Of a DNA stretch of 64,000 bases, positions 21,355-54,936 are shown piece by piece; position 1 is the first letter of the stretch, and each line of letters starts with the position of its first letter. Location: NCBI RefSeq assembly GCF_035565275.1, contig NZ_DATMST010000063.1, positions 2,537 through 66,536 on the forward strand, in the 5' to 3' direction. The notes beneath the pieces were generated by a model, which saw nothing but the letters and a program-made list of their open reading frames with translations, did no database searches and had not been told where the DNA came from. The stretch is from Sphingopyxis sp. Lineage in GTDB: Bacteria; Pseudomonadota; Alphaproteobacteria; Sphingomonadales; Sphingomonadaceae. The position numbers were made by a program, and so were the translations under genes.

Positions 21355-21576
21355 TCAATATTCGCTGTCGTCCCACTGGAACACCGCCTCGAGCGGCTTG
21401 TCGAAGACCCGCGCGATGCGGAAAGCGACTTCCAGCGAGGGCGAATATTTGCCTTGCTCGATCGCCGCGATCGTCTGGCGCGTCACGCCGACGCGGTCGC
21501 CAAGATCCCCTTGCGTCATCTCGCCCGCCAGAAAACGCAGTGTCCGGATGTCGTTCGTGAAGGGCGGCTTAGCCAT
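21355..21576 (-). CDS. Small XRE/Cro HTH regulator
   Basis: [36 protein letters not shown]. Confidence 0.9.
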
Positions 21577-21994
21577 GCCACCCCCGGCGGTAGCTCGTCA
21601 GGACGACCACATGCCCGGTGAGTTCAGCGAGGACGATCGCGAACAGCGCGCTGTTGACGATCCGCATCGGCGGGTCGGTGAAGGGCATGACGACGCCGAC
21701 AAGCATCGTCCCGGCGAGCAGGACATAATAGGACATTTGCGCGCCGCGTGCGGCGATCGCGCGGTCGCGTTCATCCACCCGGGGGCGCGGCGATTTGCGC
21801 GCCTCGAGAGTGAGCCAGGCATAGCCGGCGAGCACGACCAACCCCTGCGTCGCTGCGATCGGGCCGAACAGCCAGAGCATCGCGAACGGCGAGGTTCCCG
21901 CCGGGTGCCCGGCGAGAACCAGTCCGAAATAGAGGCTGTAGGCCAGCACCATCGCCCCCAGCGTCAGCCAACTGGTCTTTTCCCTGTAGGTCAT
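21569..21994 (-). CDS. Four-TM membrane protein paired with the XRE regulator
   Basis: [20 protein letters not shown]; overlaps the XRE start. Confidence 0.7.
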
Positions 21995-22007
21995 GAGCAA
22001 AGCTCCA

Positions 22008-22069
22008 ATGTTCGTCATATGCAACGTAATGTTAAAAATATTGAACATAGAGTCAAGAAAATTTTACAT
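22008..22069 (-). promoter_or_regulatory. Three tandem 20-bp operator-like units (21-bp period) over a sigma70 promoter
   Basis: ATGTTCG-N6-GCAACGT, ATGTTAA-N6-TGAACAT, GAGTCAA-N6-TTTACAT; TTGACT -35 on the minus strand. Confidence 0.55.
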
Positions 22070-22141
22070 GATGCGGCATTGGCCATTCCCGTGCGCGGTT
22101 CGACCTTTCGTTCGGTGCGGCAAGGGGCTAGACCCCGGCCC

Positions 22142-23005
22142 ATGTCTACACTCCCCAAAACGCTCACCCTCGACACCTCCACCAGCCGCGCGAATCCGAC
22201 GCCGCAGCCGATGAAGCGACTGACCGTACCGCGGATTCGCCAGCGCAAGGGCGGCGAGCCGATCGTGATGCTCACCGCTTACACCGTTCGCATGGCACAG
22301 CTGCTCGACCCGCATTGCGACATGCTGCTCGTGGGCGATTCGCTCGCGCAGGTGATCTATGGTTTGCCGCACACCGTCGGCGTGACAATGGAAATGATGG
22401 CGCTGCACGGCGCCGCCGTGGTGCGTGGCAGCTGGCATGCCGCAGTGATCGTCGATATGCCCTTTGGCAGTTACGAGGGCAGCCCCGAACAGGCATTCAA
22501 CAATGCGGCGCGGCTGCTCAAGGAAACCGGCGCAGCGGCGGTCAAGGTCGAGGGCGGCAAGGTGCTCGCGCCGACGATCGAATTCCTGACCCAGCGCGGC
22601 ATTCCGGTGATGGGCCATGTCGGCCTGACGCCGCAGGCGGTCAATATCCTCGGCGGTTATGGCGTGCGCGGGAAGAGCGACGAGGAAGCCCGGTCGATCG
22701 TCGAGGATGCCGTCGCGGTGGCACAGGCGGGCGCCTTCTCGATCGTGATCGAGGGCGTGCTCGAATCGATCGCGATCGAAATCACCAACAAGGTCGATTG
22801 CCCCACCATCGGTATCGGTGCGTCGGCGCAATGCGATGGCCAGGTGCTGGTGACCGACGACATGCTGGGGATGTTCGAACGCGTCCCGAAATTCGTGAAA
22901 CGCTATCAGGACATGGCCGGCGTCGTCGAGGGCGCGGTCAAGGACTATGCGGACGAAGTCAGGTCCCGTTCATTCCCGACGGAGGATCAGACCTACGCCG
23001 GCTGA
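22142..23005 (+). CDS. panB: 3-methyl-2-oxobutanoate hydroxymethyltransferase
   Basis: [40 protein letters not shown]. Confidence 0.97.
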
Positions 23006-37710: not shown

Positions 37711-38745
37711 ATGCGCGTCGACGCCTTCGATTTCGATCTGCCGAACGAACGTATCGCGCTGCGCCCAGCGCGGCCGCGCGATGCCGCGCGTATGCTGGTG
37801 GTCCACGGCGGGAACATCGCCGATGCCGGGGTGCGTGACCTGCCGACATGGTTGCGCGCGGGCGACTGCCTCGTCTTCAACGACACGCGCGTCATTCCCG
37901 CGCAACTCGAAGGCCGCCGGGGGGATGCGAAGATCGGCGCAACGCTGCACAAGCGGATCGACCTGCGCCGCTGGCAGGCGTTCGTGCGCAACGCAAAGCG
38001 GCTGCGCGTCGGCGAGACGGTCGATTTCGGCGCGGGGGTCGAGGCGCTCGCCGAGGAGCGGCTGGCCGACGGCAGCTTCATCCTTGCCTTCGGGGGCGAC
38101 GAGCCGGTCGAACTGCTGCTCGAGCGGGCGGGCACGATGCCGCTACCCCCCTATATCGCAGGCAAGCGCCCGACCGACGAAGATGATCGCAGTGACTATC
38201 AGACGATGTTCGCGCGCGAGGATGGCGCGGTCGCGGCGCCGACCGCGGCGCTGCACTTCACCCCCGAACTGCTCGGCGCGCTCGCCGCGGCGGGTGTCGC
38301 GACCGAGACGCTGACGTTGCACGTCGGCGCGGGCACCTTCCTGCCGGTGAAGGCCGATGACACCGACGACCATGTCATGCACGCCGAATGGGGGCGGATC
38401 GAGGCCGACACCGCCGCGCGCCTGAATGCGGTGCGCGCGGCGGGTGGGCGGGTGATCGCGGTTGGCACCACCAGCCTGCGCCTGCTCGAAAGCGCGGCGC
38501 AGGACGACAGCACGATCGCGCCCTTCGCGGGCGACACTGCGATCTTCATCACCCCGGGATACCGCTTCAAGGCGATCGACGGGCTGATGACCAATTTCCA
38601 TCTGCCACGCTCGACGCTCTTCATGCTCGTCAGCGCGTTGATGGGGCTGGAGACGATGCAGGCGGCTTACGCTCACGCCATCGAAAGCGAATATCGCTTC
38701 TACAGCTACGGCGACGCGAGCCTGTTGCTGCCGTCCGCGCGCTGA
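37711..38745 (+). CDS. queA: tRNA preQ1(34) SAM ribosyltransferase-isomerase
   Basis: [55 protein letters not shown]. Confidence 0.98.
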
Positions 38746-38919: not shown

Positions 38920-39144
38920 ATGAAGAAATTTCGTCTGCCGGTGCTGGTGCTGGCGTTGCTGGGGATGGGGCCGGCGGCGATGTCCGCCGAGACGCTTGCC
39001 TACAGCTATGATGCCAAAGGCCGGCTGGTGAAGGTCGTGCGCACCGGCAGCGTGAACAACACTGTCACCGTCGAATACGAGCATGACAAGGCCGACAATC
39101 GCACGCGATTGAAGACGACGAACTCGCCCAATCCGCCGCCGTAA
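38920..39144 (+). CDS. Small secreted single-YD-repeat protein (74 aa)
   Basis: Signal peptide MKKFRLPVLVLALLGMGPAAMSA, then YSYDAKGRL...VEYEHDKADNRT, i.e. two RHS-type YD motifs. Confidence 0.8.
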   Translation: MKKFRLPVLVLALLGMGPAAMSAETLAYSYDAKGRLVKVVRTGSVNNTVTVEYEHDKADNRTRLKTTNSPNPPP

Positions 39145-39196
39145 GGCGCGTCGTTCGACTCGATGAAATAGCCTTTCCAACAGAGGAATTTCCGAC

Positions 39197-42100
39197 ATGC
39201 AAACATCACGCAAACCGGGCGCCCGCCGCGCCCGTCGCTTTCTGTCGTCCGCCGCATGGCTGCCGTTCGCGGTGCTGGCACTGGGCCTGCCCTCGCCGGT
39301 TCGGGCGCAAGACGCACCCGAACCCTATCGCAACGATGACGTCTATGGCGTTGATCTGACCACTGGTAGTTTCAACGTGAAGCTTCTTGAAGGTAGGATC
39401 GGTCCTAGCGATGGCGGTGTAACGTTGGTTCGTTATTCGGGCCGTGGCGGCTATGAAAATAACTGGACCGGAGTACTTAATCGGACCAACGTGGACGGCC
39501 AAACGCGTATTAACATCAGTTTCGGAAATGTGTCTGCCAAGTTTACTCTTGGCTCCGGAGGAGTGTGGACTTCGGACAAATCTGATGGGGCGACCCTCAC
39601 CGAAACGGTCTATGATCAAACGTACAGGGCGGAATATCTTTATCGGGCAGCTGACGGAGCCGAAGTTGTCTTTAAAACGACGCCTTTCATCTCGAACATG
39701 TATCCGACTACCGGCACTGTCACATATAATTGCGCACGAGGCCCTGCGTCGCATTGCGCACTGCCCGTCTCGATGAAGCAAGCAGATGGACAGAAGTTCA
39801 TCCTGTCCTATGACACGAGCTATAGCTGTTTGCCTGGACCGGTGGGCTCGCAAAATTGCTCGGTCGGCGTTGCCCATGGCGCACAGGTTTCATCTTCTTC
39901 TGGTTATGCTGTCTCCTTCGGTACTTCCGGAGCCACTTTATTCCATCCCGATGAAAGAACCTGCGCGGGGTTTAGCTGCACCTTCCCGCCTGACACGCCT
40001 CGCGTGACATATGCTTATCCAACTACCAACGTCCTCGAGGTCACGACGACGAACGGCGAGATATGGCGCTTTACCAAAGGTACAAGCGGGACCGGAAACG
40101 GCCGTATCGTGGGTATCCGGAGTCCAGGCGCAACCAGCGATACGACGGCGATCGCCTATGACAGCAGCGGCCGGGTCACGTCCATCACCGAAGACGGCGT
40201 GACGAAGACCTATAGCTGGGGGACGTCGGGCGGAAATACGGTGGTCAATACGACCGAAGGCGGAACCGACACGGGTCAGGTGGTTTCGAATCCGGCCGTG
40301 GGCCAGCCCACGAACGTGACCAATGGCGCTGCGCAGACTATTACTTACCAATATGACACGTCGGGCCGTCGTACGCGGACGACGATGCCCGAGGGAAATT
40401 ACGTCCACACGACCTACGATGCGCGCGGCAATGTGACCGAGACGCGCGCGGTCGCGAAGCCGGGAAGCGGACCCGCTGATATCGTCACTACGGCAAATTT
40501 CGACGCGGCTTGCACCAATCCGGTCAAGTGCAACAAGCCGAACTGGACGCAGGACGCGCTCGGTAACCGCACCAACTATACTTACGATCCGACGCACGGG
40601 CAGGTGACGAGGGTCCAATTGCCTTCTCCGACCGCCGATGCAGTTGGAGCCGAAACCGGCGTGCGGCCTGAAATCAACTATGGGTACACCGGCATATCGG
40701 TCGCGAGCGGCACCGTGCATAAGCTCACGCAGATCACGACCTGTGCGACCGCGGCGACTTGCAGCGGTACGGCGAACGAGACGAAGGTGACGATCGGTTA
40801 CAATGATCGATTGCTGCCAACGACCGTTACAACGGCTGCGGGCGATGGCTCGATCAGTTCGACCACCACCTATACCTATGACTGGCTGGGCAATGTCACC
40901 AGCGTTGACGGTCCGCTCGCCGGAACTGACGACACGACCTATTATTTTGGCTCGGCCGACTTACCAGCGGGCATCATCTATCCCGATCCCGACGGTGCTG
41001 GCCCGCGTCCGCGACGGGCGGAGCGGCGAAATTATGTGAATTGGACGACGCTCGAGTCGATCTCAATCGGCACAGTTACGGGTACAGCCCTGACCGACTT
41101 GACCGGCATGACCGCGCAGCAGACGATCAGCTACACCTACGACAGCAACAAGAATATCGTCAAGGACGTGACCTCAACCCCGTCGGGAACGGTGAGCGTC
41201 GTCCAGCACAGTTATGACGCCAAGAAACGGCGGACATGCACCGCGCTGCGCATGAACCCCGCGACGTGGAGCGCACTGCCCGCCAGCGCGTGCACCGCGG
41301 CGACGGCGTCGGCGACCTATGGCCCCGACCGCATCACGCGCACCAGCTATGACGCCAACGATCGCGCGACCAAGGTCGAAACCGCGGTTGGCACGGCCGC
41401 CGCCGCCGACGAACTGCGCGCAGCTTATACCGCGAACGGGCAGATCGACCATGTCATCGACGCCGAAAGCAACCGGACGAGCTATATCTACGACGGGTTC
41501 GACCGGCTGTCGCAGACGCGCTATCCCTCGGCCACCAAGGGTGCGAACAGCAGCAACGCGAGCGATTATGAGGGGCTGAGCTATGACGCGCGGAGCAGCG
41601 TGACGCAGCGCCGCCTGCGCGACAACACGGCGGTCGGATACAGCTACGACGATCTTGGCCGGCTGACCGGCAAGGACCTGCCGGGCAGCGAGCCCGATGC
41701 GACCTATGGTTATGACCTGCTGGGCCGGCCGGCGACTGCGGTGCAGGATGGCCAGACACTCTCCTTCGTCCATGACGCCTTGGGGCGGAAAACCGGCGAG
41801 AGCATTCCCTATCTGGGTGCGACGGGTTACGCCTATGATGCGGCCGGGCGGCGGACCAGCATGAGCTATCCGGGCGGCGTGCTGACGGTCAATTACGACC
41901 ATGATGTCACGGGCAATGTCACCGCGATCCGCGAAAACGGCGCGCCATCCGGCGCGGGCGTGCTCGCGACCTATGCGTTCGACGATCTGGGACGGCGTAT
42001 GAGCGTGACGTTCGGCAACGGCAGCACGCAAAATTTCACCTATGATCCCGCGTCGCGGCTGGAGACGTTGACCAATAATCTGGGTGGGGCGGTGACGACG

Positions 42101-43423
42101 CACGACCTGACGCAGACATTCGCCTATAATCCGGCGAGCCAGATCGCCAGCGTCATGCACAGCAACGACGCCTATGCGTGGCAAGGCCATTATAACGTCG
42201 ATCGCGCCTATGTCGCCGACGGGCTCAACCGCATCATGAGCGCGGCTGCCACGAGCATCGGCTATGACGCGCGCGGCAATCTGTCGATGTCGGGCAGCGA
42301 CAGCTACGGTTATGACAGCGAAAACCGGATGACGGGCGCGCCCGGCGGCACGACGCTGCACTATGATCCCGCGGCCCGGTTGAAGCGGATATATTCGGCC
42401 GCGGGGGGAACGACCTGGTTCGGCTATGACGGTGTCGACCGGACCATCGAACTGGATGTCGTCGGCACGGTGCTGCGCCGCAATGTCCACGGCCCCGGCA
42501 TCGACAATCCGATCGTCTGGTACGAGGGCGTGGGCCTCGGCGACCGACGCTTCCTGATGGCCGACGAACGCGGCAGCGTGGTGAGCGTCACCGACAGCGC
42601 CGGCGCGACGGTGGGGCTGAACAGCCATGACGAATATGGCAATCCGGCGCCGGGCAATGTCGGGCGGTTCGGCTATACCGGGCAGACGTGGCTGCCCGAG
42701 CTGGGGATGTGGTATTACAAGGCGCGGATCTATTCGCCGGTGCTCGGGCGGTTCATGCAGACTGATCCGATTGGATATGGCGACGGGATGAACTGGTATA
42801 ACTATGTCGGTGGGGATCCGGTGAATTTTGTGGATCCGTTGGGTCTAAGCTGTGATAATCCCGGAAATGGGGATTATTGTGACCCGTACAATCCGGGTGA
42901 CGATGGTCCAGAAATAAGCGTGATCGCCAACTGCAAGAAGGGTTGGACCTGCTCTGGAAAAGTAATTTGGTACCATATGGAACCTATATCTTTTGATCTG
43001 AGATATATAAATTACTCTTGCAATGCGGGCCGTCTTGTTTGTGAGCGAGAAAAGCCGAAGTATTGTTCGTCAACCACTTATCAGGTTGGAGATCTCATAG
43101 ATGACGTAGGTGGTGCCATTCAAGGAGCGGGGGCTGCTACCGTCGTGGCTGGAGGTGTGATCGGCGTCGCGACGGCATTTACTGGCGTTGGGGTCGGCGC
43201 TGGTGGTGGAGTGGCGGGAGTCGGCGGGACGATCTACACAGGCGGGACCGCCGTATCTGCGATCGGTAATGCAGTTAAATATGCAGGCGGTCAAAGTGGA
43301 GAGTTAACAGCCGCAAAAATGATAAGCCTTCCGATCGTTTATAAACTGAATGCCGTGCCGGGAATCATATCGGATAAAGTTCTATCGGAAACCATAGATG
43401 GGGCTTTGAGTGACCCTTGTTAG
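39197..43423 (+). CDS. RHS/YD-repeat polymorphic toxin-like protein with an N-terminal signal peptide
   Basis: Many YxYD.xGR repeats; RHS core YKARIYSPVLGRFMQTDPIG and DPVNFVDPLGL; variable 191-aa C-terminus; no PAAR/VgrG motif seen. Confidence 0.93.
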   Translation: MQTSRKPGARRARRFLSSAAWLPFAVLALGLPSPVRAQDAPEPYRNDDVYGVDLTTGSFNVKLLEGRIGPSDGGVTLVRYSGRGGYENNWTGVLNRTNVDGQTRINISFGNVSAKFTLGSGGVWTSDKSDGATLTETVYDQTYRAEYLYRAADGAEVVFKTTPFISNMYPTTGTVTYNCARGPASHCALPVSMKQADGQKFILSYDTSYSCLPGPVGSQNCSVGVAHGAQVSSSSGYAVSFGTSGATLFHPDERTCAGFSCTFPPDTPRVTYAYPTTNVLEVTTTNGEIWRFTKGTSGTGNGRIVGIRSPGATSDTTAIAYDSSGRVTSITEDGVTKTYSWGTSGGNTVVNTTEGGTDTGQVVSNPAVGQPTNVTNGAAQTITYQYDTSGRRTRTTMPEGNYVHTTYDARGNVTETRAVAKPGSGPADIVTTANFDAACTNPVKCNKPNWTQDALGNRTNYTYDPTHGQVTRVQLPSPTADAVGAETGVRPEINYGYTGISVASGTVHKLTQITTCATAATCSGTANETKVTIGYNDRLLPTTVTTAAGDGSISSTTTYTYDWLGNVTSVDGPLAGTDDTTYYFGSADLPAGIIYPDPDGAGPRPRRAERRNYVNWTTLESISIGTVTGTALTDLTGMTAQQTISYTYDSNKNIVKDVTSTPSGTVSVVQHSYDAKKRRTCTALRMNPATWSALPASACTAATASATYGPDRITRTSYDANDRATKVETAVGTAAAADELRAAYTANGQIDHVIDAESNRTSYIYDGFDRLSQTRYPSATKGANSSNASDYEGLSYDARSSVTQRRLRDNTAVGYSYDDLGRLTGKDLPGSEPDATYGYDLLGRPATAVQDGQTLSFVHDALGRKTGESIPYLGATGYAYDAAGRRTSMSYPGGVLTVNYDHDVTGNVTAIRENGAPSGAGVLATYAFDDLGRRMSVTFGNGSTQNFTYDPASRLETLTNNLGGAVTTHDLTQTFAYNPASQIASVMHSNDAYAWQGHYNVDRAYVADGLNRIMSAAATSIGYDARGNLSMSGSDSYGYDSENRMTGAPGGTTLHYDPAARLKRIYSAAGGTTWFGYDGVDRTIELDVVGTVLRRNVHGPGIDNPIVWYEGVGLGDRRFLMADERGSVVSVTDSAGATVGLNSHDEYGNPAPGNVGRFGYTGQTWLPELGMWYYKARIYSPVLGRFMQTDPIGYGDGMNWYNYVGGDPVNFVDPLGLSCDNPGNGDYCDPYNPGDDGPEISVIANCKKGWTCSGKVIWYHMEPISFDLRYINYSCNAGRLVCEREKPKYCSSTTYQVGDLIDDVGGAIQGAGAATVVAGGVIGVATAFTGVGVGAGGGVAGVGGTIYTGGTAVSAIGNAVKYAGGQSGELTAAKMISLPIVYKLNAVPGIISDKVLSETIDGALSDPC

Positions 43424-47423: not shown

Positions 47424-48227
47424 ATGACGGCATTGGCGATGTTGAAGCGTCGTGGGCGCGCTTTGCTGGCGATTTTTGCCGCACTTGCGGTGCTCGTCAG
47501 TCCGGCCTTGGCCATGCGCGTCTCCCCGATGGTGGTCGAGATGGAATCGCGCGGCAGTTCCGCCGTCGCCCGCATCGAGGTCCAGAACATCAACCCGGGC
47601 AATCTGGCTTTCCAGACCCGCGTCTTCCGCATGGAATTCGACAAGGATGGAAAGGTCGTCGAAACCCCGGCCGACGACCAGTTCCTGATCTTTCCGCCGC
47701 AGGGTGTGCTCGCTGCCGGCGGCCGTCAGGTCGTGCGACTGCAGTGGGTTGGCGATCCCGAACTGGCCGCATCGCAAGCCTATTATGTTTCGGTCGAGCA
47801 ATTGCCGGTGGCATTCGAACCCGGTGCCACCGAAACGGTGGGTGCTCAGGTCCAGGTGCTTTACAATATGCGCGCGCTGGTCGTGGTGGCGCCCCCGGGG
47901 GCAAAGCCGCAGGTCAAGGCCACCTCGGTAAAGGCGGTTACGTATCAGCCCCCGGCGCTTCCCGGCGCGACGGACCTTCCGCCGATGCAGGACGGGCTTG
48001 AAATCACGCTGCGCAACGATGGCCGCCGCCACGCGATGATGGCGAATTTCGGCTGGCTGCTCGAAGGCACGGACAAGGACGGAAAATGGCTGCGGGTCGA
48101 CATCTCGCCCGAAGAACTGACCCGCGCTGTCGGCACGGGCTATGTTCCCGCCCAGGGTGAACGCGTTTTCCGGATTCCGGTCCCCGGTTTCGGGCCCGGC
48201 CCCGTGAAGCTGTCGTTCAAGCAATGA
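47424..48227 (+). CDS. Periplasmic fimbrial chaperone (non-classical type)
   Basis: Signal peptide, VSPMVVEM, FLIFPPQGVL..GGRQVVRLQW, YYVSVEQLP. Confidence 0.88.
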   Translation: MTALAMLKRRGRALLAIFAALAVLVSPALAMRVSPMVVEMESRGSSAVARIEVQNINPGNLAFQTRVFRMEFDKDGKVVETPADDQFLIFPPQGVLAAGGRQVVRLQWVGDPELAASQAYYVSVEQLPVAFEPGATETVGAQVQVLYNMRALVVVAPPGAKPQVKATSVKAVTYQPPALPGATDLPPMQDGLEITLRNDGRRHAMMANFGWLLEGTDKDGKWLRVDISPEELTRAVGTGYVPAQGERVFRIPVPGFGPGPVKLSFKQ

Positions 48228-50851
48228 GGAGGGGACTCGTCCTTTGCTCGGTGGCGCTTCCGGCCTTATGCGCCGGCACGGCGGCCGCGCAGGTTTCCAT
48301 TCCGCTGCCCCAGAGTCAGAAGACAACGCCGCCGGTACAGAATCAGGGCGAACCGACGACCATTCCGCTCCCGGGAACGCCGATACCGCCGGTGCCAACT
48401 CCGACGCCGGTCATGCCGCAGTTGCCGATCGGCGCGCATGGCCGTCCGGACATCAACCCGTACAACCGCGACATCGACATGACGGTGCCGCTGACATTCC
48501 TGAACCGCAGCTTGGGCGATATTCCGATGCGGCTGACGGCGGACGACCGTTTCCTGCTCGAATCGGAAACCTTTCTCCGCCTGATGCGGCCCGTGCTGAA
48601 CGATCCGGCGCACGCCACCCTGGCGGGGCATCTGCAGAATCTGACGCAATTCGGTCCCGATGACCTCGCGAAAACCGGCGTCGCGCTGAACTATGATCCC
48701 AGCACGCTGGCGGTGGTCGTCGTCGAAGTGACACCGGAACAGCGGGCGATACAGAACCTGTTCGCGCCGCCTCGCGACGATATCAACAGCGTCACGCTGC
48801 AACCCGCCGATTTTTCCGCCTATCTCAATCTGAACGTCATCCAGACCAAGATTTGGGAAGCCGACGGGACCGATCCGCCCACAGTCAATTTCGACGGTGC
48901 GATCCGGCTCGGCCGCATCGTTTTCGAAGCCGATGCCCAGTTCGCGCAGACCTTTGGCCTGACCGAGGACAAGTATAAATTCTCGCGCAACTATGCGCGG
49001 CTCGTCTATGACGAACCCGAGGATTATCGCCGCTGGTTTCTCGGCGATCTCGACCCTGAAATCCGCGGCCAGCAATCCTTCGTCCAGATGGGCGGCGTCG
49101 GCGTGCTGCGACAGCAGCGGCGTTTCAACACCTTCCGGTCGGCCGTTCTGCAATCCAACCGCCAGCTTGTTCTTCAGCGGGAATCAACGGTTCGCTTCCT
49201 GCGCAACGGATCGCTCTATCGCGAGGTGCGGCTGCAGCCCGGCAGCTATGATTTCAGTTCGCTGCCGCTGATTGCCGGCAGCAACGACATCGACATCCAA
49301 GTCACCGACAATACCGGGGCCATCCAGAATCTGTCGTATCAGCAATATCTCGACCCGATCGATCTCGATCCGGGCGATTATGAATATGGCGCCTTTCTGG
49401 GCCCGACGAGCAGCAGGTTCGGTCGCGCACCCGACTATCGCGGGCCGGTCGCCTTCACCGGCTTTTTTCGCAAGGCCTTTTTCGATGCCCCCGCGGTCGG
49501 GGTCGGTCTTCAGGTCAGCAAAGACGTCCAGACGCTTACCGGCCAGACCCAGTTCGTGCTCGGAAACGGCGGGCGACTGCTCCTCGATGCGGGGGGCAGC
49601 AATTCAAAATCGGCCGGGCAGGGTTATGCCGGCGGCATCAGCTACGAGCATTTCATCGACCGTGCAGGACTGTCCGACAGCTTCACGCTGCGGGGTGATT
49701 ATCTGTCGCCGAAGTTCGCGACGCTGGGCAATATCGACGGGATCAATACCACGTCGATGACGCTGTCGGCGCAATATACCCGGCAATTCAGCCTTCGCTT
49801 CATGACCACATCGACCGCGTCCTATCTCAGGGGACGCGGGTCACTTGGCGACAGCTACCGCGTGGGGACTACCGGCTATTATCGCATCGACCGGAAATGG
49901 ACGCTCCGCGCCGGGGTCGATTATTCAAAATATCCGTCGACCTTTTCGCGCCGGGAAGGCGTCAGTTTCAATATCGGGCTCGTCTTCCAGCCCGACTATC
50001 GCCGACGGGCTGAAGCCCGCTACGAAAGCCGCGACAATCTCGCCGAGCTTTCCTACAATCAAAGCGGTCTCAACCAGCTCAACAGCGTCGGCTTCGGCGG
50101 TGTGGTTGCGCATCAGGATGACAATGTCCGCGCGCAGGGCTATGCGACCTATTCGGCGAACCGCTTCGACGCGGCGATCAGCCACGCAACCTATGGCCCC
50201 AGCTTCTCCGACTTCGGTGCGGTCAACGCCACTTCGGTCCGCGTCGGTACCACCATCGCTTTCGCCGACGGCACGGTCGGCGTCGGGCGGCGGATCAACG
50301 ACAGCTTCATGCTGCTATCTGGGCACAAGAATCTGGGCAAGCGCAGCGTGGTCGCCGGCCAGTCGCTGGCCGAGAATAATTATATCGGCAAAAGCGGCCC
50401 GCTCGGGGCAGCGGTCAACAATTTCCTTGGTTCCTATTCCACCCAGTCGGTGCAATATGATGTCGAGAATCCGCCGACGGGATACGATGTCGGACCGGGC
50501 GTGTTCCGGGTCCATCCGCCGTACAAGAGCGGTTATGCGGCGCGCATCGGCACCGACGCGTTTGCCAGCGTCATGGGTACGCTGATTCTCGCTCCCGACA
50601 TGCCTGTGTCGCTGATCGGCGGCCGTGTGACCCTGCTCGATGTCCAGGAAACCGAAACGCCCAAGCCGATTCCGTTCTTCACCAATTCGGCCGGACGCTT
50701 TGCGATCGCCAACCTGTTGCCGGGTCGCCGCTATGTGGTGGAAACCTATGGTCCCAATGGTACGATCGACCGGAGCTTTGAATTCACGGTGCCGGCGGAC
50801 ACCAATGGTCTGGTGAACCTTGGCCCCGTTCGCCCCGGTTCGAAAAATTAG
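48224..50851 (+). CDS. Fimbrial usher (outer membrane)
   Basis: 875 aa, signal peptide, RRWFLGDL, plug motif LQPGSYDFSSLPLIAGSNDIDIQVTD, beta-strand-rich barrel, FFTNSAGRF. Confidence 0.88.
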   Translation: MRRGLVLCSVALPALCAGTAAAQVSIPLPQSQKTTPPVQNQGEPTTIPLPGTPIPPVPTPTPVMPQLPIGAHGRPDINPYNRDIDMTVPLTFLNRSLGDIPMRLTADDRFLLESETFLRLMRPVLNDPAHATLAGHLQNLTQFGPDDLAKTGVALNYDPSTLAVVVVEVTPEQRAIQNLFAPPRDDINSVTLQPADFSAYLNLNVIQTKIWEADGTDPPTVNFDGAIRLGRIVFEADAQFAQTFGLTEDKYKFSRNYARLVYDEPEDYRRWFLGDLDPEIRGQQSFVQMGGVGVLRQQRRFNTFRSAVLQSNRQLVLQRESTVRFLRNGSLYREVRLQPGSYDFSSLPLIAGSNDIDIQVTDNTGAIQNLSYQQYLDPIDLDPGDYEYGAFLGPTSSRFGRAPDYRGPVAFTGFFRKAFFDAPAVGVGLQVSKDVQTLTGQTQFVLGNGGRLLLDAGGSNSKSAGQGYAGGISYEHFIDRAGLSDSFTLRGDYLSPKFATLGNIDGINTTSMTLSAQYTRQFSLRFMTTSTASYLRGRGSLGDSYRVGTTGYYRIDRKWTLRAGVDYSKYPSTFSRREGVSFNIGLVFQPDYRRRAEARYESRDNLAELSYNQSGLNQLNSVGFGGVVAHQDDNVRAQGYATYSANRFDAAISHATYGPSFSDFGAVNATSVRVGTTIAFADGTVGVGRRINDSFMLLSGHKNLGKRSVVAGQSLAENNYIGKSGPLGAAVNNFLGSYSTQSVQYDVENPPTGYDVGPGVFRVHPPYKSGYAARIGTDAFASVMGTLILAPDMPVSLIGGRVTLLDVQETETPKPIPFFTNSAGRFAIANLLPGRRYVVETYGPNGTIDRSFEFTVPADTNGLVNLGPVRPGSKN

Positions 50852-53273: not shown

Positions 53274-54936
<1,663 letters not shown>

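Follow-up and report, generated by a model that had tools for sequence, protein, structure and literature searches.

The DNA considered here, hereafter the window, is a 64,000-nucleotide stretch from the alphaproteobacterium Sphingopyxis sp. (RefSeq assembly GCF_035565275.1, contig NZ_DATMST010000063.1, positions 2,537 to 66,536 of the forward strand). It contains an open reading frame (ORF) for an RHS protein of 1408 aa, which is flanked by queA, a gene for a small YD protein, an ORF with two predicted transmembrane helices (2-TM ORF) and a gene for a MerR regulator (Table 1). Judged from its sequence, the RHS protein has the features of an RHS polymorphic toxin: YD repeats (Pfam RHS_repeat PF05593, E 2.5e-31; TIGR01643, E 1.7e-21), a core domain with a DPxGL motif, and a variable C-terminal tip followed by a candidate immunity gene. 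The results of the sequence comparisons support a reading in which this toxin would be exported by the Sec pathway and would acquire disulfides in the periplasm, with no involvement of a type VI secretion system (T6SS).

Export signal and paired cysteines

The ORF opens with an ATG at position 39197, which has a good ribosome-binding site (GAGGA, 9 nt upstream). The first 37 residues have the layout of a Sec-type signal peptide: an n-region with six Arg/Lys within residues 1–14, an h-region with a hydrophobic core (residues 16–31, LSSAAWLPFAVLALGL) and a c-region, PSPVRA, followed by QD, with the cut predicted between residues 37 and 38. This three-part layout was recognized by eye in nearly all full-length homologues, the leader sequences themselves differing, and the leaders of the homologues end in AxA/Q directly upstream of the conserved mature motif PEPYRN-DE-GVD-TG-F. 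A crude script scored 90 of 111 homologues as signal-peptide-like, and most of the remaining 21/111 were gene calls cut short inside the leader. A canonical Sec signal peptide, kept across the family, is strongly supported by these comparisons, which bear out the sequence-only reading (an earlier account of this DNA, made from its letters without database searches) in taking the N-terminus for a signal peptide that ends just before QD. Signal peptidase I (SPase I) would cleave between A37 and Q38.

The five Cys pairs listed in the sequence-only reading are all present in the shell of the protein, together with a sixth, C681/C699, absent from that list. When 111 full-length homologues were aligned and their Cys counted region by region (column-wise scoring under-counts pair 3), each homologue (111/111) was found to hold either two or no Cys in each of the six shell regions, and never one; the total number of shell Cys was even in 109/111. 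Such pairing of neighbours arose in 13 of 2,000,000 trials (about 6.5e-6) in which 12 Cys were placed randomly in 1180 positions. The polymorphic toxin tips display the same parity: the Cys count is even in 84/84, that is, in all the tips delimited, which represent 59 unrelated sequence clusters, and 83/84 have at least two Cys. The idea that the first and last Cys of the tips are conserved was rejected, as this is true of under half of them, and the parity result alone stands. In an AlphaFold2 model of residues 38–460, pairs 2 and 3 flank the turns of beta-hairpins; for pair 2, strands E163–176 and E182–196 flank model residues 174 and 184.

Gain and loss of Cys strictly in pairs is the signature expected of disulfides, so the whole protein appears to be adapted to an oxidising compartment. 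That the shell pairs and the even tip Cys behave family-wide as disulfides, and hence that folding would be periplasmic, is strongly supported by this pattern. The pair-wise changes in the shell and the even tip counts also speak for the disulfide-stabilized loops that the earlier account had placed in the periplasm. A strict disulfide-pair pattern encompassing both the cage and the tips appears to be new.

The named homologues, among more than 965 obtained, come from Sphingopyxis, Sphingorhabdus, Pelagerythrobacter and Hephaestia, a list that the genome loci extend to Sphingomonas, Erythrobacter, Caulobacter, Brevundimonas, Hyphomonas, Marinicaulis and one Steroidobacter. The distribution of the family was followed in an evenly drawn sample of 301 Sphingomonadales genomes, of which 33 were positive for the RHS family by profile search and 268 negative (a single N-terminal query finds the family in 24/301). 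Gene neighbourhoods were compared in 82 RHS loci, 81 besides the present one.

A profile search of the Sphingopyxis genome found no TssC (PF05943), and PAAR is absent both from the RHS protein and from this genome. Among window ORFs of at least 380 aa there is no VgrG-type Pfam match, and no Eag gene flanks the RHS gene, although no family search aimed at Eag was made. TssC was detected in 9/301 genomes of the order and in one of the 33 family-positive genomes, and is, thus, absent from the other 32. A T6SS route for the RHS toxin is excluded on these profile and domain searches, as the sequence-only reading had foreseen in proposing a non-T6SS route and in pointing to the lack of PAAR and VgrG genes in the window.

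Shell, toxin tip and neighbouring genes

The AlphaFold2 model of residues 38–460 (423 aa, from 45 sequences of the loci) is all-beta, with a predicted local distance difference test score (pLDDT) of 88.8 and a predicted template modelling score (pTM) of 0.83. Its best Foldseek matches are Rhs cocoons (7q97_A, template modelling (TM) score 0.63), teneurins and TcB/TcC, with E down to 3e-13, and the modelled stretch overlays the first part of Rhs cocoons. The possibility of a distinct receptor or outer-membrane domain at the N-terminus was rejected because residues 38–460 are the beginning of the cocoon, and, on the evidence of the model, the mature protein appears to be a bare cocoon without PAAR, anchor, receptor or other extra domain. 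No lipobox, membrane anchor or extra surface-binding domain was found in the RHS protein by sequence, model or Foldseek, and SpvB, TcdB-mid, beta-propeller, TIP, FN-plug and NHL domains gave no Pfam match in it.

The core domain ends in a putative autocleavage motif, DPLGL; the family alignment shows no variation at D1213, P1214 and G1216 or in the DERGS / DE-G motifs upstream of them. Alignments with the homologues cover about 85% of the query; past DPxGL (residue ~1217) the sequences split into the 59 tip clusters. The tip of the present protein lies in a G+C trough (0.556 at 42–44 kb) and has no Pfam family and few relatives (a 125-aa core in 36 clusters among 1.8 billion proteins). The few tips of the family with a Pfam assignment (glucosaminidase, peptidase M15 and phospholipase A2 (PLA2)) all act on the wall or membrane. 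The 2-TM ORF, of 68 aa from GTG 43410 or 60 aa from TTG 43434 (preceded by AGGAG), has no significant Pfam match and is presumed, from its position behind the toxin tip, to be the immunity gene.

The gene for the small YD protein ends 51 nt upstream of the RHS gene. By tblastn, 70/82 loci have a match to it somewhere, and in most of the loci this homologue immediately precedes the RHS gene. A conserved two-gene unit, composed of the RHS gene and the gene for a small, probably secreted, one-repeat YD protein, is strongly supported by these sequence matches, and this conserved partner appears to be new. At two positions in L027 and one in L046, the place of the partner of about 70 aa is taken by a longer protein (about 210 aa) whose start, a signal peptide and a YD repeat, is the same. 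In Pelagerythrobacter marensis, two 5'-truncated RHS cassettes (570 and 453 aa) are found downstream of the full-length RHS gene; each is then followed by a small ORF, an arrangement resembling the orphan toxin-immunity arrays of other RHS loci.

The genes queA and tgt, often neighbours in alphaproteobacteria, are here about 15 kb apart, and the interval holds the RHS module, a MerR/TipAS regulator and a pilus cluster. The insertion site is not a conserved one, since just one other locus (L074) has queA beside the RHS gene. The pilus cluster is of a divergent chaperone-usher type: its usher candidate, an 875-aa ORF, has no Pfam match at E 1e-5, and the adjoining chaperone has a weak PapD_N match (5e-6). 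The sequence-only reading had speculated that the RHS protein might leave the cell through this neighbouring usher. This route was rejected, since chaperone-usher genes are found near the RHS gene in just 1/81 other loci and the usher is, thus, a chance neighbour.

Table 1. Features of the RHS locus in the window, and loci of relatives referred to in the text. Prefixes L001 and so on denote RHS loci of other genomes; counts refer to the aligned full-length homologues.
Feature	Position	Strand	Basis or remark
queA	37711..38745		
Small secreted partner, 74 aa, signal peptide and one YD repeat	38920..39145	+	ORF; Pfam RHS_repeat E 6.8e-6
Ribosome-binding site GAGGA	39183..39187	+	Read from sequence
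RHS ORF, 1408 aa	39197..43423	+	
Sec-type signal peptide, residues 1-37, predicted SPase I cut VRA/QD	39197..39307	+	n/h/c layout, cut by rule
Mature YD/RHS shell, residues 38-1217	39308..42847	+	Pfam and TIGR01643, partial fold model
Cys pair 1 (C179/C187)	39731..39757	+	2 Cys in 93/111, 0 in 18/111, never 1
Cys pair 2 (C211/C221)	39827..39859	+	2 Cys in 94/111, 0 in 17/111
Cys pair 3 (C256/C261)	39962..39979	+	2 Cys in 66/111, 0 in 45/111
Cys pair 4 (C439/C445)	40511..40531	+	Invariant, 111/111
Cys pair 5 (C516/C522)	40742..40762	+	Invariant, 111/111
Cys pair 6 (C681/C699)	41237..41293	+	Invariant, 111/111
RHS repeat-associated core domain, residues 1146-1217, ends DPLGL	42632..42847	+	TIGR03696 E 2.8e-20
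Putative autocleavage motif DPLGL, residues 1213-1217	42833..42847		
Polymorphic C-terminal toxin tip, 191 aa, 8 Cys, glycine-zipper-like stretch, low G+C	42848..43423	+	Sequence
Candidate immunity gene, AT-rich, two hydrophobic helices	43410..43616	+	ORF, position after toxin tip
Usher candidate ORF	48224..50851		
tgt	53779..54936		
Compact T4SS in RHS loci of relatives (first nine)	L001:319-7593; L004, L005, L011, L012, L017, L019, L021, L026		
Compact T4SS in RHS loci of relatives (other eight)	L027, L042, L046, L050, L056, L061, L062, L069		
Truncated RHS cassettes of Pelagerythrobacter marensis	L001:12642-16593		
Partner of about 210 aa	L027:9242-9973 and 21512-22183; L046:13886-14440		

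A VirD4-less type IV secretion system in relatives

Neighbour clustering revealed a compact VirB2-B3-B4-B6-B8-B9-B10-B11 type IV secretion system (T4SS) adjoining the RHS pair in 17/82 loci, listed in Table 1 (L063 was left out, as its system is conjugative, of the Trb type with TraG). Sphingomonadales as well as Caulobacterales show this arrangement, with the T4SS upstream or downstream of the RHS genes and all orientations represented; in Pelagerythrobacter marensis, virB3-B4-B6-B8-B9-B10-B11 is immediately followed by the genes for the small protein and the RHS protein. This compact T4SS is chromosomal and is found in about 10% of Sphingomonadales genomes. The VirB4 proteins of the RHS-linked systems form a tight clade (58–81% identity, and 23% to Trb-type VirB4), VirB10 is nearest to TrwE/TraF, and VirB11 to Brucella VirB11. 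About 70/301 genomes, mostly from three genera, carry a second VirB4 clade, which shares 51–55% identity with the RHS-linked clade and shows no association with the RHS family.

Neither VirD4 nor a relaxase, VirB1 or VirB5 is conserved in 37 loci of the compact T4SS, and no VirD4/TraG-family match was obtained in five genomes carrying it (G050, G226, G236, G009 and G019). An adjacent RHS gene is present in G050, G226 and G236; G050, G226, G009 and G019 are single-contig or complete assemblies, and G236 consists of about 10 contigs. As no VirD4, relaxase or integrase is conserved with it, this T4SS is not an ordinary conjugative element.

The RHS family and the T4SS also tend to occur in the same genomes. 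Of the 301 genomes sampled, 17 have both, 16 have the RHS family alone, 13 the T4SS alone and 255 neither, which corresponds to 17/33 versus 13/268 genomes (odds ratio 20.8, Fisher p = 3e-11, statistics that ignore shared ancestry). In 12 of the 17 co-occurring genomes (12/33 family-positive genomes), the two lie within a few kb of each other, and in some genomes (G139, G254) there are RHS genes on both sides of the T4SS. A tree of RHS shells (mafft and FastTree) places the window's protein in a clade with four T4SS-adjacent relatives, and no RHS-linked T4SS is present in the Sphingopyxis assembly itself. A search of the literature, the coverage of which is incomplete, yielded no paper linking Rhs to a T4SS, and the association appears to be new. 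On this genomic evidence, the VirD4-less T4SS is a strong but unproven lead for the relatives, and not for this genome. The sequence-only reading had argued that the protein needs an exit through the outer membrane: the part of that claim which concerns export is supported, but the best candidate machine is outside the list of exits then proposed and is absent here.

Secretion machines of the Sphingopyxis genome

A search for secretins showed that this genome has a type II secretion system (T2SS), with gspD-E-F-G-H-I-J on a 5.6-kb contig (C140) broken at both ends. A Pfam search of the genome for GspL was negative, probably because of the contig break, as C140 ends before gspK-M. The other secretin, on contig C175, is part of a Cpa/Tad pilus cluster. 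All 11 sampled genomes of the genus have a GspD orthologue.

The T4SS genes of this genome form two conjugative sets of the Trb type with TraG-family coupling proteins, on contigs C158 and C211. Both were rejected as the RHS-linked type, being Trb-type with TraG and 59–74% identical to the conjugative set of L063, and they suggest the presence of two integrative or plasmid elements.

Weighing the exit routes

Several observations weigh against the proposed Sec-exported, disulfide-stapled toxin with a T4SS as its exit. The linked T4SS is missing from 16/33 family-positive genomes, this one included, and 10/33 have neither this T4SS nor a GspD-type T2SS nor a T6SS, so no single dedicated exporter explains the whole family. 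Thirteen genomes have the T4SS without the RHS family, and 18/20 T4SS loci from genomes with RHS elsewhere contain no RHS gene within about 8 kb. The co-occurrence test takes no account of phylogeny, and the two accessory traits, patchy in their distribution, could occupy the same islands. The T2SS is not enriched either, a GspD orthologue being present in 12/33 family-positive versus 103/268 other genomes (odds ratio 0.9). At about 130 kDa, a folded cocoon is bulky cargo for the outer-membrane channel of a T4SS. The assembly comprises 347 contigs and is 95% complete, so that absence calls are not absolute, and the cleavage site and the disulfides are deduced from sequence.

The first alternative is that the adjacency of T4SS and RHS genes results from hitch-hiking of accessory genes in shared competition or mobile islands, with the T4SS serving other substrates or a pilus, and the RHS protein leaving by vesicles, by lysis or, where present, by the T2SS. 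The genomes with only one of the two traits and the T4SS loci distant from any RHS gene fit this explanation, as do insertion sequence (IS) and recombinase genes near some arrays. It accounts less well for close linkage in 12 of the 17 co-occurring genomes, in all gene orders and orientations and in two orders of bacteria, for the lack of a conserved VirD4, relaxase or integrase, and for the T4SSs of G139 and G254, flanked on both sides by RHS genes. Hitch-hiking is a minority explanation, but one to be taken seriously.

T2SSs carry folded, disulfide-bonded periplasmic proteins, and this strain has such a system; GspD orthologues are found in all the sampled genomes of its genus. In this strain, the toxin could leave through the T2SS, in the manner of the class that Zhang et al. 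(2012) called 'T2SS/Sec-dependent'. GspL, however, was not detected in the genome (the contig ends before gspK-M), 21/33 family-positive genomes have no GspD orthologue, and the absence of enrichment noted above leaves this exit possible but unsupported by association. The T2SS had been named as an exit in the sequence-only reading; it was indeed found in the genome, but the family-level association that might have singled it out was not. For this strain, secretion by the T2SS seems to us a tentative proposal, less probable than its contrary.

A third alternative, considered unlikely, is that the protein is not released at all and is periplasmic or bound to the outer membrane, reaching neighbouring cells only by vesicles, contact or lysis. 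The family-positive genomes with none of the three candidate machines are consistent with this, and the delivery route of bacterial teneurin-like proteins (TLPs), which are also Sec-exported YD-shell toxins, is stated to be unknown in a 2026 paper (PMC13018210). Against retention, the mature protein seems to be a bare cocoon, with no lipobox, membrane anchor or surface-binding domain by which it might be held.

It is highly improbable that the protein lacks a signal peptide and is a cytoplasmic protein starting at GTG/V26, for use by a T6SS encoded elsewhere. The deposited gene call (P0002, 1383 aa) does start at V26, 25 codons downstream of the ATG, leaving out window positions 39197-39271 and halving the leader. 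However, the ATG has a good ribosome-binding site, a full signal peptide is kept in homologues, and both the pattern of Cys pairs and the absence of TssC and PAAR from this genome count against cytoplasmic folding for a T6SS. Several homologues in public sets are shortened likewise inside the leader, and automated annotation, thus, hides the signal peptide.

The least credible alternative, Tat (twin-arginine translocation) export of a protein folded in the cytoplasm, was prompted by the RRARRFL of the n-region and by the presence of RR in the n-region of 38/111 homologues, and was rejected, because many homologues have no RR at all, the Tat consensus [ST]RRxF[LIV] is matched by 0/111 homologues (in agreement with the earlier remark that RRFL is only a partial Tat motif), and disulfide-dependent folding suits Sec rather than Tat.

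Comparison with known systems

RHS toxins with signal peptides were catalogued across all bacteria as a 'T2SS/Sec-dependent' class in Table 1 of Zhang, de Souza, Anantharaman, Iyer and Aravind (2012; PMC3482391), so a signal peptide on a Gram-negative RHS protein is not new in itself. The present protein shares with this class its signal peptide, RHS repeats, variable C-terminal toxin and adjacent immunity gene (here a candidate). The 2012 class is a computational catalogue that names no partner protein, disulfide pattern or machine beyond the default 'T2SS', whereas it is the VirD4-less T4SS, and not the T2SS, that is associated with the present family.

The WapA proteins of Bacillus subtilis and Streptococcus suis are Sec-dependent Rhs contact-dependent toxins of Gram-positive bacteria. 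Like them, the Sphingopyxis protein has a predicted Sec signal peptide, a YD shell and a polymorphic tip with an immunity-type gene, and uses no T6SS. WapA, however, has wall-binding parts and a single-membrane host, whereas the protein described here would be a bare cocoon in a double-membrane alphaproteobacterium, with the outer membrane still to cross.

The beginning of a cocoon predicted by the model of residues 38–460, the core domain and the DPxGL motif are shared with Rhs effectors of the T6SS, such as Pseudomonas protegens RhsA (7q97) and Photorhabdus Rhs1 (7pq5); Salmonella bongori Rhs (8qjb-d) and Tse5 (8cp6) are further T6SS effectors of this kind. Unlike these effectors, the present protein has no PAAR, prePAAR or VgrG linkage and no T6SS, and has a signal peptide and paired Cys instead. 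TLPs (PDB 9ifo) are, likewise, Sec-targeted YD-shell toxins with polymorphic, membrane-active tips, and 9ifo_A is matched by Foldseek with E 1e-9. They are much larger, however, possess TIP, FN-plug and adhesion domains and, in Gram-negative bacteria, take the form of lipoproteins, whereas the members of the present family have about 1400 aa, a predicted SPase I cut and no extra domains. In Tc cocoons (TcB-TcC; YenB-YenC2, 4igl; TcdB2-TccC3, 4o9x), too, a self-cleaved toxin is caged in an RHS cocoon; more than one polypeptide contributes to the shell, and the small YD partner may play a comparable part. There is no TcA translocator and no SpvB or beta-propeller domain here, and the partner has only about 50 aa.

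For the route as a whole, pertussis toxin offers a parallel by analogy only. The Ptl system has no VirD4. Pertussis toxin follows a two-step route, by Sec and then by the Ptl T4SS of Bordetella pertussis (PMC8402538). Sec-exported cargo, disulfide-dependent folding in the periplasm and a VirB-type T4SS without a coupling protein would be common to both cases. The cargoes are unrelated (an AB5 toxin as opposed to an RHS cocoon), the link to the T4SS is known from genomes only in the present family, and the T4SS is absent from this genome.

Proposed mechanism

The explanation that best accounts for the observations as a whole is that the protein is a Sec-exported, disulfide-stapled polymorphic RHS antibacterial toxin, independent of the T6SS, for which a T4SS is the best family-level exit candidate. 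We estimate the probability of this explanation at about 0.6, including as part of it the view that the protein belongs to a large alphaproteobacterial RHS family, mainly of Sphingomonadales, making no use of the T6SS. The precursor would be exported by SecYEG and cut by SPase I after A37. The cocoon would then fold in the periplasm, its hairpins being stapled by DsbA-type oxidation, and the core domain would cleave after DPLGL, with the tip remaining caged. Caging of the glycine-zipper tip, which would act on membranes, may protect the producer's periplasm and inner membrane during transit, and any escaped tip may be neutralized by the 2-TM immunity protein in the inner membrane. The small YD protein would be exported along with the RHS protein and probably extends or closes off the shell.

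At the level of the family, the VirD4-less T4SS would take the folded toxin from the periplasm, as Ptl does for pertussis toxin. By this analogy, the chances that it provides the outer-membrane exit wherever it is present seem to be evenly balanced. The broader proposal, that a dedicated VirD4-less VirB2-B11 T4SS takes up from the periplasm the signal-peptide RHS toxins found in Sphingomonadales and Caulobacterales and their YD partners of about 50 aa, is a little less secure, and falls somewhat short of an even chance. In the present strain, exit by vesicles, by lysis or by retention in the envelope is plausible but not quite an even bet, whereas exit by the resident T2SS is put no higher than tentatively above. 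A T4SS missed by the fragmented assembly is improbable, and what little remains is left to some other route.

Implications

The way in which Sec-exported YD-shell toxins leave double-membrane cells and arrive at their targets is an acknowledged open question (PMC13018210). The present family provides clean sequence evidence that both cage and tip are built for an oxidising compartment, and offers a concrete candidate machine, as the cultured strains Sphingomonas elodea ATCC 31461 and Pelagerythrobacter marensis carry the RHS pair beside the T4SS. Should the link to the T4SS prove false, the family would still constitute a well-defined, uncharacterized branch of RHS toxins with a conserved small partner. 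If the link is true, this would be a second, widespread two-step protein secretion route (Sec, then T4SS) after that of pertussis toxin and Ptl, and the first connection of RHS cocoons with type IV secretion, in the killing of rival bacteria with toxins acting in the periplasm. The range of known T4SS substrates would be widened, and caging would be explained as a means of safe passage through the producer's own periplasm. It would also explain how sphingomonads, which are nearly free of T6SS (9/301 genomes), compete with other bacteria.

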